A DNA stretch of 64,000 bases from a bacterium (GTDB taxonomy: Bacteria > Patescibacteriota > Microgenomatia > Daviesbacterales > UBA10151), in assembly GCA_021786315.1 (NCBI GenBank), contig JAJYNN010000002.1, positions 100,160 to 164,159 on the forward strand, written 5' to 3'. A program made the translations under genes and the position numbers. A model generated the notes under the pieces. That model had not been told where the DNA came from. It worked only from the letters and a program-made list of their open reading frames with translations, and ran no database searches. Positions within the stretch are counted from its first letter, which is position 1, and each line of letters begins with the position of its first letter. Shown in pieces: positions 34,884 through 52,620 of this stretch.

Positions 34884-36341
34884 ATTATTGAGAGTTTGAT
34901 CCTGGCTCAGGATGAACGCTGGCGGCGTGCCTTAGGCATGCAAGTCATGGGGCTCCGCAAGGAGAACCGGCGGACGGTTGAGTAACGCGTGGGAATCTAC
35001 CTCAAAGTGGGACATAGCCAGCCGAAAGGTTGGGTAATTTCCCATGTGCTCGCAAGAGTAAAGCCGCAAGGCGCTTTGAGATGAGCCTGCGTCCTATCAG
35101 CTAGTTGGTGGGGTAATGGCCTACCAAGGCGACGACGGGTAGCTGGTCTGAGAGGATGGTCAGCCAGAATGGGACTGAGACACGGCCCATACACCTACGG
35201 GTGGCAGCAACCAGGAATATTGGACAATGGGCGAAAGCCTGATCCAGCGACGCCGCGTGGAGGATTGAAGGCCCTCGGGTTGTAAACTCCTTTTGTCAGG
35301 GAAGATTATGACGGTACCTGACGAATAAGCACCTGCTAACTACGTGCCAGAAGCCTCGGTAATACGTAGGGTGCAAGCGTTATCCGGATTCATTGGGCGT
35401 AAAGAGTTGCGTAGGCGGAAGGATACATCTTGCTTGAAAGACTGTGGCCCAACCACAGATTTGGGCAAGATATGGTTCTTCTTGATGGTATGAGGGGGTG
35501 TTGGAACCGATGGTGGAGCGGTGAAATGCGTTGAGATCATCGGGAACGCCGAAGGAGTAGTCAGGCACCTAGCATATTCATGACGCTTAGGCACGAAAGC
35601 TTGGGGAGCGAAGCAGATTAGAGACCTGCGTAGTCCAAGCCGTAAACGATGGATGCTAGTTATCGGGCGTATGCTCGGTGACGTAGGTAACCCGTTAAGC
35701 ATCCCGCCTGGGGAGTACGAGCGCAAGCTTAAAACTCAAAGGAATTGACGGGGAGGCGCACAAGCAGTGGAGCGTGTGGTTTAATTCGATACAAAGCGAA
35801 ACACCTCACCAGGATTTGACATGTATCTGCAAGCGCACGGAAACGTGTGACCTTCGAGGGTGATACACAGATGCTGCATGGCTGTCGTCAGCTCGTGGCG
35901 TGAGCTGTACCGTTAAGTCGGGTAACGAGCGCAACCCGCACCGTATGTTGAATTGTTCATACGGAACAGCCTCATTTTTTGAGGAGGAAGGCGCGGATGA
36001 CGTCAAGTCAGCACGGCTCTTACATCCTGGGCTACACACACCCTACAATGGCGAATAACAACGAGTTGCAAGCCGGTAACGGCAAGCTAATCTCTAAAAT
36101 TTCGCCTCAGTTCAGATTGAGGTCTGAAATTCGACCTCATGAAGTTGGAATTGCTAGTAATCGCGAATCAGCAGGTCGCGGTGAATACGTTCTCGCCTCT
36201 TGTACACACCGCCCGTCAAGGCAGCAAAGTTGGGGGCGCCCGAACCTCGATGTATGTCGGGGGAAGGTGAAACCAGCGATGAAGCTTAAGTCGTAACAAG
36301 GTATCCCTAGCCGAAGCTGGGGATGGATCACCTCCTTTCTG
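34884..36341 (+). rRNA. rrs: 16S ribosomal RNA
   Basis: 5' AGAGTTTGATCCTGGCTCAG at 34891. 3' AAGTCGTAACAAGGTA...GGATCACCTCCTTTCT ends near 36341. The 515 region is divergent (GTGCCAGAAGCCTCGGTAA). Confidence 0.9.
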
Positions 36342-36495
36342 GAGATTCGATTAAGCTGGAGGATTCCTTAAACCCGCAAGGGAAGGTAGCCACGGTTTGA
36401 TCCATGATCACCATTTGTATTCTCACGATACGGTGATAGAAGTTGAAGGCTTCTTAAAAAACCTTTCCCACCACTTTTTTGAAATCAAACAACTA

Positions 36496-36526
36496 GCCCC
36501 GTACCGAATGGTTCGGGGTTTTTTGT
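36496..36526 (+). terminator. hairpin plus T-run after 16S
   Basis: ccccgtaccgaatggttcgggg followed by ttttttg. Confidence 0.45.
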
Positions 36527-36568
36527 GGATTGACAAGGCTGGAAGGGGATAGTATCTTGGATACCAGA

Positions 36569-36928
36569 ATGGAAAGACCGTGCTTACAATCATGTCCGGA
36601 AATTTGGTGTATTAATAACGATAAAGAAGGGTGTCCAACATATATTGGAGGTCGCTGCTTCGGCGCTCCGGGTGTTTTAGAAAAGTTTACCGATAGAGTT
36701 TATGAGGCAATAAGAAGTGCTTCACGCAGATCTTTCCAAAGAGCGATGGGGGTAGTGAATATGGAAAATGCATTAATGGCGGAGGGGGTAGTGTCCGCAG
36801 CTACTTTAGTAGCCGGGGCAATTAGCGGCAATGTCTTGATGTTTGCGGGGGGATTTGGCGGAACAGCTTTCTATAATGTGGCTGAAGTTGGCCGCTCCGG
36901 GTGGAAATTCTTAAATTCTCAAAGCTAA
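36569..36928 (+). CDS. hypothetical small Cys-containing protein in the 16S-23S interval (leaderless-like)
   Basis: TTGACA(36530)-17-TATCTT(36553) precedes an ATG at 36569. The 119-aa protein has a Gly/Ala-rich C-terminus. Confidence 0.35.
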   Translation: MERPCLQSCPEIWCINNDKEGCPTYIGGRCFGAPGVLEKFTDRVYEAIRSASRRSFQRAMGVVNMENALMAEGVVSAATLVAGAISGNVLMFAGGFGGTAFYNVAEVGRSGWKFLNSQS

Positions 36929-37037
36929 AGAGGATTAATTTAGTGGGCGCACATGGGATAGGGCTACCTTTTGACTACGTCAAAACGATCCTGTAATTGT
37001 CGCTTCGCTCAAATTATCGAACCATCATAAAAAATTG

Positions 37038-37109
37038 AGGCCTGGGTGGGAATCGAACCCGCGTATAAGAGTTTTGCAGACTCCTGCCTTACCACTTGGC
37101 TACCAGGCC
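37038..37109 (-). tRNA. tRNA-Cys (anticodon GCA)
   Basis: The reverse complement folds as GGCCTGG/CCAGGCC acceptor, anticodon stem GGAGT/ACTCT with loop CTGCAAA, and T-loop TTCGATT. There is one C-A mismatch in the T stem and no encoded CCA. Confidence 0.6.
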
Positions 37110-37204
37110 GTGGAGATATCTTACCATGAATTTAGCCTTGAGGCTAGGACACTGTTAACTTCCCACAAGACAAATTGATCTTAATTTGATAAAATACTCG
37201 GGTT

Positions 37205-37379
37205 ATGGGAATAGTGGAAAATCTTAAGGAACGAGGTAAACAGGTATTGTTTTCCTTCGGGGAAATGGGTTTGGGTGTTCTTTTGTTGGAGGGTTTCCCG
37301 GTTGTTATTCCCACAGTTGCTGCTATAGTAGCTATTACTAGGGGAGGAAATAGGTTTAAGAGAGCGTTAAGTTTTTAAT
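37205..37379 (+). CDS. hypothetical 58-aa small membrane protein
   Basis: ATG...TAA frame reading MGIVENLKERGKQVLFSFGEMGLGVLLLEGFPVVIPTVAAIVAITRGG... (my own reading; it is below the ORF-track cut-off). Confidence 0.25.
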
Positions 37380-37382
37380 TTT

Positions 37383-37457
37383 GGGCGCATGGCTCAGTGG
37401 TAGAGCGCGTCACTGATAATGACGAGGTCCATGGTTCGATCCCATGTGCGCCCACCA
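37383..37457 (+). tRNA. tRNA-Ile (anticodon GAT), CCA encoded
   Basis: GGGCGCA/TGCGCCC acceptor, D-arm GCTCAGTGGTAGAGC, anticodon loop CTGATAA, T-loop TTCGATC, then ACCA. Confidence 0.85.
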
Positions 37458-51424: not shown

Positions 51425-51447
51425 AGCACCCCGTAAGGGGTGTTTTT
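51425..51447 (+). terminator. rho-independent terminator after 23S
   Basis: gcaccccgtaaggggtg followed by tttttt. Confidence 0.6.
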
Positions 51448-51477
51448 TGTGCCTAAAACAAAGAAAAGGTATGGTTT

Positions 51478-51650
51478 TTTAGTATGCGTCTTTGGTGGCA
51501 AAGACGCCCAAAGCCACTTTGACGGGAACGAGACCTAAATTTGTCTTGTTGCTAGTCGGGGCTCACCCCCTCGGAAATTCCCTTCGGTCAGTTTCCGGTT
51601 CCCCCTGACAGCAACTTCGTCAAATTTTTAACGGTCTCCTGTTCCAAGTC
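51478..51650. other. conserved non-coding element, copy 2 (see 13598-13770)
   Basis: gcgtctttggtggcaaagacgcccaaa...acctaaatt...ccccct...aatttttaacg. Confidence 0.4.
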
Positions 51651-51683
51651 AAAGAAAGAGGGGATAGATGATATACTAGATTT

Positions 51684-52262
51684 ATGTCTGCTCGAAACCG
51701 TGGTTTTACTCTGATAAGTCTACTTTTGCGACGCAAAAGATCTTGTCAAGGTTTCACCTTGATTGAACTCTTAGTTGTTATTTGTATTGTGGCAATCCTT
51801 GGTACCGTTGCTTTATTGGTTTATACCAATACTTTAAAAAGTGCCAGAATGGCAAAGAGAATTGGGGATTTGCAAAGTATTAATACGGCAATTGAATTGT
51901 ACCGGGATGAGAACAATCATTACCCAATTGCTACTAATTGGCGCTCTGAGTGTGCCAAAGGTGGTAATTTAAACCCCGATGATGTTGTCCCCGGATTAGT
52001 CCCTAAATATACCCGGATATTTCCTTCTGATCCCTTAATGGTTAAAAACACCAACTCTTCCTGTTATATGTATATCTCCAATGAAGATGGATCGGGATAT
52101 AAACTTTTGGATTATCAAATCAGTGAATTTACCCCCGCTGATTACTTAAAGGAGAGGGGGCTAATAGATCCGGCCCGGGATGGGGGATCGGATCCCTGCA
52201 AGGTGGACGGAGATTCACCGGAGGCCTGGGGTTTTTATACCTATAATGCCTGTGCCCTTTAA
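51684..52262 (+). CDS. type IV pilin / pseudopilin-like protein (prepilin N-terminal domain)
   Basis: QGFTLIELLVVICIVAILG matches the class III signal G|FTLIE. An upstream partial duplicate GFTLISLLL is present. Confidence 0.6.
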   Translation: MSARNRGFTLISLLLRRKRSCQGFTLIELLVVICIVAILGTVALLVYTNTLKSARMAKRIGDLQSINTAIELYRDENNHYPIATNWRSECAKGGNLNPDDVVPGLVPKYTRIFPSDPLMVKNTNSSCYMYISNEDGSGYKLLDYQISEFTPADYLKERGLIDPARDGGSDPCKVDGDSPEAWGFYTYNACAL

Positions 52263-52312
52263 AAGATTTAAGAATCTTAAATCTGCATTCCTAAATCTTA
52301 AATCTAGCTTAT
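52262..52312. repeat. AT-rich palindromic repeat family, half copy
   Basis: cttaaatctgcattcctaaatcttaaatctagc is nearly identical to the right arm of the 38326-38393 copy. Confidence 0.7.
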
Positions 52313-52375
52313 TTCAAGGAATGGTTTAGGATTAAATTACCCTTGATAATTGCCCAAAAGTTTGGTACACTAAAT

Positions 52376-52493
52376 GTCCGGTGATTTGAGCGGTGCGGAA
52401 CCACCCTTTCCCATTCCGAACAGGGTCGTGAAACACACCAGCGCAGACGATACTAGGGTCGAAAGGCCTCGGGACAATATGTCATTGCCGGGA
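52376..52493 (+). rRNA. rrf: 5S ribosomal RNA (3' boundary uncertain; a duplicated 3'-end segment follows)
   Basis: TGTCCGGTGATTTGAGCGGTGCGGAACCACCC...CCCATTCCGAACAGGGTCGTGAAAC aligns with the bacterial 5S 5' half. GTCATTGCCGGGA occurs at 52481 and again at 52569. Confidence 0.5.
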
Positions 52494-52590
52494 TTATCAT
52501 CAAATTTTCCCTAAAGGAAAATTAGATGTCTGGCAATGCCATGCGAGAACTAAAATCGTTCTCTAAAGTCATTGCCGGGATATACAAATA

Positions 52591-52620
52591 AACCTCCTAA
52601 ACGGAGGTTTTTTGTTCTTT
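52591..52620 (+). terminator. rho-independent terminator after 5S
   Basis: cctcc-taaac-ggagg hairpin followed by ttttttgttcttttt. Confidence 0.6.

Follow-up and report, generated by a model that had tools for sequence, protein, structure and literature searches.

The ribosomal RNA (rRNA) genes of a bacterium assigned to the Daviesbacterales (Patescibacteriota; Microgenomatia) were analyzed in a stretch of 64,000 nucleotides (nt) from contig JAJYNN010000002.1 of assembly GCA_021786315.1, hereafter referred to as the window. Using the covariance models of Rfam together with ARAGORN, the 16S, 23S, and 5S genes and three transfer RNA (tRNA) genes were placed on the sequence (Table 1). A first-pass annotation, made from the letters of the sequence alone, had described the canonical order 16S-tRNAIle-tRNAAla-23S-5S as recognizable but broken, with about 9.8 kb between the two spacer tRNAs. 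The boundaries agree with this description: the order is preserved but physically split, with 11,237 nt between 16S and 23S, 9,846 nt between tRNA-Ile and tRNA-Ala, and 1,002 nt between 23S and 5S. The break point lies exactly between the two canonical spacer tRNAs. Aligned with its E. coli counterpart, the 16S gene shows two small deletions.

With such distances, the locus departs from a canonical rrn operon, in which the genes are contiguous and the spacers measure a few hundred nt, and its 16S and 23S genes are unlinked by the definition of Brewer et al. (>1,500 bp; 10.1101/705046). Under the scheme of Lui et al. (PMC8172020), the 16S-23S pair belongs to type D, unlinked by distance, and its gap further holds a tRNA-Cys gene and a methyltransferase gene on the minus strand. 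The corresponding test for 23S and 5S (more than 2,000 bp or genes on the opposite strand) does not separate this pair, as only one pilin gene, on the same strand, lies between them; it would be classed as “operonic with ORF” (open reading frame) or as ambiguous. Nevertheless, the predicted terminator after 23S and the promoter-like element ahead of 5S argue for an uncoupling of these two genes as well.

The features that the first-pass annotation listed directly after 16S, namely a terminator, a promoter with a small ORF, tRNA-Cys on the opposite strand, and tRNA-Ile, are all present, and the small ORF has no match in Pfam. Within the interval, Pfam recovered the named GH18, dacA, methyltransferase, pgk, and gap genes, and the pilin-like gene between 23S and 5S was likewise identified by its N_methyl domain and prepilin motif. 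The list was otherwise incomplete, as it omitted a Transgly_assoc gene, a conserved ORF of 197 aa, and a LAGLIDADG-coding insertion in 23S. One label did not survive: the 773-aa secreted-type protein, called GH5-like, has only sub-threshold matches in Pfam (Glyco_hydro_cc, 20.3 bits against a cut-off of 21, and Dockerin_1) and no sequence relative in the PDB. The G+C content across the interval is 0.41-0.51, similar to that of the remainder of the window. In Table 1 and below, the loci of relatives are designated by L numbers.

Table 1. Features of the split rRNA locus, with positions counted from the first letter of the 64,000-nt window.
Feature	Position	Strand	Evidence and remarks
SpoU-family RNA methyltransferase gene	33391-33945	+	Pfam SpoU_methylase E=1e-33; upstream neighbor of 16S
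16S promoter-like element, TTGACA-17-TAGAAT	34504-34532	+	11/12 match to consensus
16S flanking (processing) stem, 5' strand	34688-34717	+	holds AAAAGTGGTGGG; pairs with 36467-36490
16S rRNA gene	34884-36338	+	Rfam SSU_rRNA_bacteria 1389.5 bits, model 1-1533; 1,455 nt, without insertion
16S flanking stem, 3' strand	36467-36490	+	CCCACCACTTTTTTGAAATCAAAC
Intrinsic terminator after 16S	36496-36525	+	GCCCCGTACCGAATGGTTCGGGG + TTTTTTG; hairpin -17.5 kcal/mol followed by T-run
Small hypothetical ORF	36530-36928	+	probable start ATG 36569; promoter-like TTGACA-17-TATCTT at 36530-36558
tRNA-Cys(GCA)	37037-37109	-	Rfam, ARAGORN
tRNA-Ile(GAU)	37383-37457	+	Rfam, ARAGORN; stays on 16S side of split
Transgly_assoc gene	37700-37957	+	Pfam
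GH18 gene	38612-39913	+	Pfam E=3e-32
Peptidase_S11 D-Ala-D-Ala carboxypeptidase gene (dacA)	39910-41046	+	Pfam E=4e-47
Methyltransferase gene	41043-41810	-	Pfam
Phosphoglycerate kinase gene (pgk)	41876-42895	+	Pfam PGK E=3e-71; conserved interval core
ORF for 773-aa secreted-type protein	42879-45200	+	Pfam sub-threshold matches only
Conserved 197-aa ORF	45202-45795	+	homologues in L007, L011
Glyceraldehyde-3-phosphate dehydrogenase gene (gap)	46048-47124	+	Pfam Gp_dh_N, Gp_dh_C; conserved interval core
tRNA-Ala-23S promoter-like element, TTGACA-17(TG)-TAAACT	47121-47149	+	begins within last codons of gap
Conserved leader, promoter to tRNA-Ala	47179-47266	+	GAGAAGCAACGC ... AGCGTTGTATCCCTC; ~90 nt; same place in 7 relatives
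tRNA-Ala(UGC)	47304-47377	+	Rfam, ARAGORN; stays on 23S side of split
23S flanking (processing) stem, 5' strand	47450-47474	+	TTTGCACTTTGAAATGTGAATACGA; complementary to 51395-51420
23S rRNA gene	47576-51374	+	Rfam LSU_rRNA_bacteria 2317 bits, model 1-2925; 3,799 nt
Single-motif LAGLIDADG endonuclease ORF	49755/49890-50366	+	Pfam LAGLIDADG_1 E=5e-26; ~158 aa, probable start ATG 49890
Insertion in 23S	49790-50445 (approx.)	+	656 nt, after E. coli position ~1931 (pairwise alignment to E. coli rrlH)
23S flanking stem, 3' strand	51395-51420	+	
Intrinsic terminator after 23S	51426-51448	+	GCACCCCGTAAGGGGTG + TTTTTT; -21.9 kcal/mol
Conserved structured repeat/sRNA-like element	51486-51656	+	171 nt, between 23S terminator and pilin gene
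Type IV pilin-like gene	51684-52262	+	Pfam N_methyl E=2.5e-10; GFTLIELLVV prepilin motif
5S promoter-like element, TTGATA-17(TG)-TACACT	52343-52371	+	ends 5 nt ahead of 5S
5S rRNA gene	52377-52493	+	Rfam 5S_rRNA 73 bits
Intrinsic terminator after 5S	52590-52618	+	AAACCTCCTAAACGGAGGTTT + T-run; -14.0 kcal/mol

The neighborhoods of phosphoglycerate kinase (PGK) in relatives were collected through exact-protein look-up and through a scan in which each GTDB species was represented by one genome, and their rRNAs and tRNAs were annotated with Rfam, ARAGORN, and BLAST. Owing to insertions, Rfam placed the 3' end of 16S too early in L005, L012, L013, and L015, and these ends were corrected by the motif GGATCACCTCCTT. 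The best named homologues of the PGK all belong to Candidatus Daviesbacteria or Microgenomates (52-65% identity), which assigns the organism to Candidatus Daviesbacteria. The order 16S, tRNA-Cys, tRNA-Ile, pgk, gap, tRNA-Ala, 23S was found in seven relatives whose sequence spans the interval, and the gap between 16S and 23S in these genomes measures 3,587 nt in L013, 5,892 nt in L003/L010 (JAQTZF01, a 1.10-Mb contig), 6,866 nt in L005 (Ga0376277, a 1.13-Mb contig), 7,630 nt in L007 (CP066688, an 820,589-bp record), 12,998 nt in L009, 16,144 nt in L016, and 17,631 nt in L012. In all seven, pgk lies between tRNA-Ile and tRNA-Ala. Two further loci, L014 and L015, agree in their 16S-side half, with pgk downstream of 16S and tRNA-Ile; their available sequence ends before any tRNA-Ala or 23S. 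Homologues of gap (58-73% identical) follow downstream of pgk in L003, L005, L007, L009, L012, L013, L014, and L016, and none was found in L015. Here, we define a Daviesbacteria-type locus as the series SpoU, 16S, tRNA-Cys/tRNA-Ile, pgk, gap, tRNA-Ala, and 23S. The window has this series in full, as do L003, L005, L007, and L013; in L009, L012, and L016, the same order can be seen from the 3' end of 16S to 23S.

Compared across genomes, the interval consists of a fixed pgk/gap core with variable content in three places, between tRNA-Ile and pgk, between pgk and gap, and between gap and tRNA-Ala, each filled differently from genome to genome. Upstream of pgk, the window shares Transgly_assoc, GH18, and dacA with L009 and shares GH18 and dacA with L012; the whole block from Transgly_assoc to the methyltransferase gene (37700-41810) is absent from L003, L005, L007, and L013. 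Because 16S identity to the window is no higher than 84.5-92% among the genomes that share the layout, and PGK identity no higher than 52-59%, the arrangement must be old. Turnover is limited to the accessory blocks, which alone can be comparatively recent; the split itself is ancient. In other Microgenomates, whose PGK is about 40% identical (e.g., Woesebacteria), pgk adjoins gap, and no rRNA or tRNA-Ile/Ala gene lies within 10 kb. The first-pass annotation had attributed the layout to an insertion or rearrangement that split this operon, had proposed a comparison with related genomes, and had named the same order in relatives, as an ancestral state, as the outcome that would speak against it; this is the outcome that the comparison gave.

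The same annotation had assigned to each rRNA segment its own promoter-like element and terminator, and such elements were indeed located for all three (Table 1), with promoter-like elements of the sigma-70 type ahead of 16S and of tRNA-Ala-23S. Upstream of 16S, the pattern TTGAC[AT]-N17/18-TA(A/G)AAT occurs 213-352 nt before the gene in six of the six loci for which that flank is available. The leader also contains TTTAACAA twice, at 34590 and 34679, a sequence that we presume, as a lead only, to resemble the boxA core of E. coli; antitermination signals occur in the rRNA leaders of other bacteria. Leader and trailer of 16S are complementary over a core of about 28 consecutive pairs, and all of the relatives' loci retain AAAAGTGGTGGG in the leader and CCCACCACTTTT in the trailer. 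Directly 3' of the trailer stem, a G+C-rich hairpin with a T-run is present in seven of ten loci, with sequences that are non-homologous.

Upstream of tRNA-Ala, the pattern TTGAC[AT]-N17/18-TAnAnT with an extended -10 TG is found in register in all eight Daviesbacteria loci, 17-30 nt before the conserved leader. This leader is closed by a stem (GAG..CAACGC / GCGTTG..CTC) that is invariant in the eight loci and that encloses a variable hairpin (CTTCC...GGAAG; in L012, CCGCC...GGCGG instead). Because the closing stem is invariant, with pairs that never vary among these loci, no covariation was observed and the measure is uninformative here; the leader could be a processing or antitermination element. 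The core helix around 23S comprises about 26 pairs, and its flanks AAATGTGAATACGA and TCGTATTCACATTT are complementary, with both strands kept in relatives. Around both large rRNAs, the locus thereby retains the leader/trailer complementarity of rrn-type processing stems. The 23S terminator is symmetrical and so terminator-like on both strands; a scan reports its minus-strand reading. The signals of the 16S and tRNA-Ala-23S units are conserved even though the intergenic DNA of the relatives is otherwise unalignable.

For 5S, the promoter-like element is positioned 5-6 nt ahead of the gene in the window and in L013, and similar elements occur in L003 and L016. The order 23S, pilin, 5S, pilin, S1 is common to the window and L013. 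In L016, 5S follows 107 nt after 23S, and in L003, a radical-SAM gene on the minus strand lies between the two. A side observation concerns the 3' end of 5S, the last 14 nt of which (GTCATTGCCGGGAT, 52481-52494) recur 87 nt downstream at 52568-52581, directly ahead of the 5S terminator.

From the perspective of the locus as a whole, the best explanation is that this is the normal rRNA layout of Candidatus Daviesbacteria and not damage to this genome, and that the genes are probably expressed as three separately transcribed units; we put the probability of this reading at roughly 85%. As predicted from these signals, the first unit would consist of a promoter, 16S with its own leader/trailer processing stem, and a terminator; the second of a promoter, a structured leader, tRNA-Ala, 23S with its own processing stem, and a terminator; and the third of a promoter directly at the 5S start, 5S, and a terminator. 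The genes for tRNA-Ile and tRNA-Cys would form a small invertible satellite beside 16S. If the three units are separate, the stoichiometry of 16S, 23S, and 5S would therefore be set by matched promoter strength and not by co-transcription. As for origin, a canonical 16S-tRNAIle-tRNAAla-23S-5S operon in an ancestor probably opened between tRNA-Ile and tRNA-Ala, with the lower-glycolysis pair pgk-gap entering the opened gap. Later lineages would then have gained or lost further genes around this core; in the present genome, the extras would be Transgly_assoc, GH18, dacA, the methyltransferase, and the 773-aa protein.

The observations that count against this reading are best considered together with the alternatives. 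Since rRNA genes are classic sites of breakage and mis-joining in metagenome assemblies, contigs ending in rRNA might have been wrongly joined, in which case the 11-kb segment would not truly lie between 16S and 23S. A Logan contig (run SRR13201255) is identical to positions 36315-47632 of the window (100%), from the 3' end of 16S through the 5' end of 23S; the overlap of this independent contig with the rRNA genes is limited to the final 24 nt of 16S and the initial 57 nt of 23S, and it may have been assembled from the sample that also yielded the genome. A PGK identical to that of the window was found on six contigs, of which the longest recorded measures 942,606 bp. As leader and trailer are complementary across each large rRNA gene, both flanks of each gene belong together. 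Duplex-energy z-scores computed over the full 200-nt flanks came out modest (-2.0 and -1.8), since promiscuous pairing is a property of long AT-rich sequences; the case for the stems was built not on these scores but on the length of the uninterrupted core helices and on their retention in relatives. Moreover, ten assemblies from different studies agree, including CP066688 and two contigs of more than 1 Mb, and the synteny is completed by SpoU upstream and, in L013, by pilin and S1 downstream. On the basis of the identical contig over both junctions, the complementary flanks, and the concordant assemblies, mis-assembly was rejected, and it is very unlikely, to the point of being negligible. 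The arrangement may not be universal in the clade, however. In L017 and L025, whose PGKs show Daviesbacteria-level identity (53-55%), no rRNA or tRNA was found in the available flanks (5.6 kb upstream and 10 kb downstream in L017; 10 kb upstream and 2.7 kb downstream in L025), nor was a gap homologue; in L017, GH18 and dacA lie downstream of pgk. These two genomes may be exceptions, or their gaps may be longer. A recent event in the present genome, either a mobile island at tRNA-Ile or a local rearrangement, could also have split a compact operon. At 36943-36959 on the minus strand, 479 nt upstream of tRNA-Ile and flanking tRNA-Cys, a stretch of 17 nt repeats the 3' end of tRNA-Ile exactly, in inverted orientation (100% complementary to 37439-37455), and partial direct copies of tRNA ends occur in L003 (tRNA-Cys, 9674-9691) and L005 (tRNA-Ile, 9688-97xx). 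Furthermore, tRNA-Cys and tRNA-Ile show three combinations of orientation among relatives, with tRNA-Ile on the minus strand in L003, L005, and L013. The tRNA-end copies and this variety mark the 16S-side junction as a recombination/inversion hot spot, and the absence of the 37.7-41.8 kb block from four relatives can be read in the same direction. By contrast, the split with pgk-gap is shared by the seven spanning relatives as well as L014 and L015, and GH18 and dacA are at the same place in L009 and L012. An integrative element is likewise not in evidence: no integrase or transposase domain was found by Pfam among the interval ORFs scanned, no direct repeats flank the interval, the G+C content shows no shift, and the only tRNA-end copy in the window is inverted and set apart from its tRNA. 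A recent mobile-element insertion was rejected on these grounds, and any recent local event is highly improbable. The earlier proposal of an insertion or rearrangement specific to this operon is accordingly not supported, all the more as core housekeeping genes (pgk, gap) lie inside the interval.

The suggestion that the segments are now expressed separately fares better, and three independent transcription units remain the best reading of the sequence, given that the 16S and tRNA-Ala-23S promoters, the stems, and most of the 16S terminators are kept in relatives. It could still be that the genes form one long operon despite being spread out, with the internal promoters acting only as boosters. 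All of the rRNA genes and 9 of the 11 named interval genes are on the plus strand, no clear terminator follows 16S in L007, L013, and L015, and the 23S-5S gap, with its same-strand pilin gene, is under the 2,000-nt criterion (PMC8172020). The putative boxA-like motif in the 16S leader would point the same way. With most interval genes co-oriented with the rRNAs, some read-through from 16S to 23S may occur. On the other hand, a strong terminator stands directly after the 16S trailer stem and is positionally kept in most loci; tRNA-Cys and the methyltransferase gene are on the opposite strand within the interval, as is tRNA-Ile itself in three relatives; a full -35/-10 promoter ahead of tRNA-Ala is kept in every locus compared; and the gap length ranges from 3.6 to 17.6 kb among relatives. 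The predicted terminators after 16S and 23S, together with the conserved internal promoters, argue against a single primary transcript, and the one-operon alternative is unlikely. A related idea is that pgk-gap has been kept between the rRNA genes of all sampled Daviesbacteria by selection, as a “supra-operon” that couples energy metabolism to rRNA synthesis through partial read-through of the 16S terminator or a shared promoter architecture. We regard this as doubtful. If true, ATP- and NADH-yielding lower glycolysis would be tied to rRNA in a fermentative organism with minimal regulation, and the arrangement would not be a frozen accident.

The 23S gene is lengthened by an insertion that codes for a LAGLIDADG protein within a conserved rRNA region, as expected for a homing-endonuclease intron. 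Rfam gave no group I intron in the window 23S at the gathering threshold, and a focused Intron_gpI search yielded 15.5 bits (E=0.3), where the gathering score is 50; candidates for the insertion are a group I intron, another type of intron, or an intervening sequence. In L007, a LAGLIDADG protein 48-66% identical to that of the window is encoded inside its own 23S, and Rfam-positive group I introns are found in the 23S genes of L003 and L005. The 16S genes of L005, L007, L012, L013, and L015 contain insertions of 0.7-1.7 kb, several of them with LAGLIDADG ORFs, and a weak match to group II D1-D4 falls within the 16S insertion of L013. The insertion in the window 23S would have to be excised or tolerated, as in many bacteria of the Candidate Phyla Radiation (CPR). 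According to the passages in which their work is cited (PMC9297842, PMC7143001), Brown et al. (2015) likewise described CPR 23S genes lengthened by insertions coding for LAGLIDADG proteins; the insertion in the window differs in having no significant match to a group I ribozyme.

Between the 23S terminator and the pilin gene lies a structured element, of which eight copies were found in different genomes (the window; L003, 18855-19011; and L090-L095). Its first 43 nt are identical or carry one change (G39A) across the eight copies. The interior varies, one of its helices showing compensatory changes, and a single copy is shortened to 85 nt. The predicted fold (z=-4.4) comprises a 5' hairpin, a possible pseudoknot (loop GTGG with CCAC), and then a long helix closed by CTTTGACGGGAA and TTCCAAGTCAAAG. 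No Rfam family matched at E<=10. On metagenome contigs, the copies lie away from rRNA genes, with two copies on one contig, and the genes downstream of the copies differ (pilin, leucyl-tRNA synthetase, a Laminin_G_3 protein, and an unknown). A MAFFT alignment aligned the block to the 5S start in L016; the idea of a 5S relic was dropped in view of the missing Rfam match and the copies away from rRNA genes, as was that of a pilin leader, as copies precede unrelated genes. The element is regarded as an unclassified intergenic repeat or small RNA outside the rRNA system; it may be a repeat similar to enterobacterial repetitive intergenic consensus (ERIC) sequences or miniature inverted-repeat transposable elements (MITEs), or a new small RNA, and a new class of structured RNA is a possibility. 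In L090, L093, and L094, a second conserved motif follows it (ATTGCCCGCTTGGAAC.AAG.GCGTTAAA ... CAGGGGGAACCGGAAACTG), which is absent from the window.

Several further observations concern the spacers, the PGK, and the strand composition of the window. AT-rich short repeats (GATTTAAGA / TAAATCTTAAATC) are present at 38316-38389 upstream of GH18, at 47493-47544 in the tRNA-Ala-23S spacer, and at 52260-52310 upstream of the 5S promoter; in relatives, other short tandem-like motifs occupy equivalent spacer positions. Around residues 25-44 (...VSEHQSVSGSEKGK...), the PGK of the window carries an insertion of about 13 aa that its relatives lack. Over 38 nt, the underlying DNA (41946-41991) shares 79% identity with a palindromic repeat in intergenic sequence at 38099-38167, and the insertion may reflect in-frame entry of a small repeat, or chance. 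Over positions 1-64000, the cumulative GC skew shows a steady climb as far as about 55-56 kb, beyond which it levels off or falls; this suggests that the replication strand bias changes shortly downstream of the rRNA locus; the G-rich strand carries all of the rRNA genes.

The layout matters in practice. Neither amplification nor binning can treat 16S and 23S as a single operon in Daviesbacteria and in many other members of the CPR, and long-amplicon methods that span 16S, the internal transcribed spacer, and 23S miss these organisms. Likewise, when metagenome-assembled genomes are curated by the linkage of rRNAs on contigs, kilobases of protein genes between rRNA genes should be expected. The locus also offers a natural example in which three rRNAs that are needed in equal amounts apparently come from separately promoted and terminated units, and its conserved promoter and leader sequences are targets for the study of rRNA balance.

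The E. coli operon rrnH (rrsH-ileV-alaV-rrlH-rrfH) has the same order and orientation as the locus described here, the same spacer tRNAs (Ile-GAU and Ala-UGC), and a complementary leader and trailer for each large rRNA. Its spacers measure 446 nt (16S-23S) and 93 nt (23S-5S), whereas those of the window measure 11,237 and 1,002 nt and hold terminators and promoters. The rrn operon of E. coli is co-transcribed. Bacteria with small genomes and a single rRNA copy, such as Buchnera, Wolbachia, Mycoplasma gallisepticum, and Borrelia (cited in PMC8172020), likewise keep 16S apart from 23S-5S in a clade-conserved manner. To judge from the titles of the references given there, 23S and 5S stay together in these bacteria as one operon, whereas in the window 5S is detached too, and the pieces keep their original order over no more than 18 kb.

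The closest parallels come from the CPR itself. Lui et al. found 16S and 23S unlinked in 27 of 34 circularized CPR genomes, sometimes with 23S and 5S unlinked as well and with proteins in the spacers (Lui et al., 2021, PMC8172020). Among the Microgenomatia, the gaps between the small- and large-subunit rRNA genes were 2.9-11.7 kb, and in one genome all three genes were unlinked, by 7,805 and 2,882 nt (PMC8172020, S1 Table). The Patescibacteria are also among the clades for which Brewer et al. reported unlinked rRNA genes (Brewer et al., 2019/2020, 10.1101/705046). As in the window, these are single-copy genes on the same strand with kilobases of tRNA and protein genes between them, some on the opposite strand, and both gaps of the window lie within the CPR/Microgenomatia range (PMC8172020). 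The two studies classify by distance and strand only, and report no conserved pgk-gap core, no split placed exactly between tRNA-Ile and tRNA-Ala throughout Daviesbacteria, and no conserved promoters, terminators, or processing stems for each unit. In another example, the Microgenomates genome Ch65 has one 16S, one 23S, and one 5S gene in a single cluster, with protein genes between trnI-GAU and trnA-UGC, both of which lie between 16S and 23S; its 23S contains an intron for a LAGLIDADG homing endonuclease (Kadnikov et al., 2020, PMC7143001). Ch65 differs in belonging to another order-level lineage, UBA1400, and in having only two intervening genes; the window has ten ORFs over 9.8 kb, an added tRNA-Cys, and a detached 5S. 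In the literature searched, no description was found of the Daviesbacteria-wide pgk-gap core, of the exact conservation of the split point, or of the sets of promoters, stems, and terminators. The novelty of the core between tRNA-Ile and tRNA-Ala, of the conserved split point, and of the conserved signal sets is modest and incremental. The layout of the window is a further case of a kind already published for CPR bacteria and Microgenomates, real but ordinary, and it overturns nothing in that picture.

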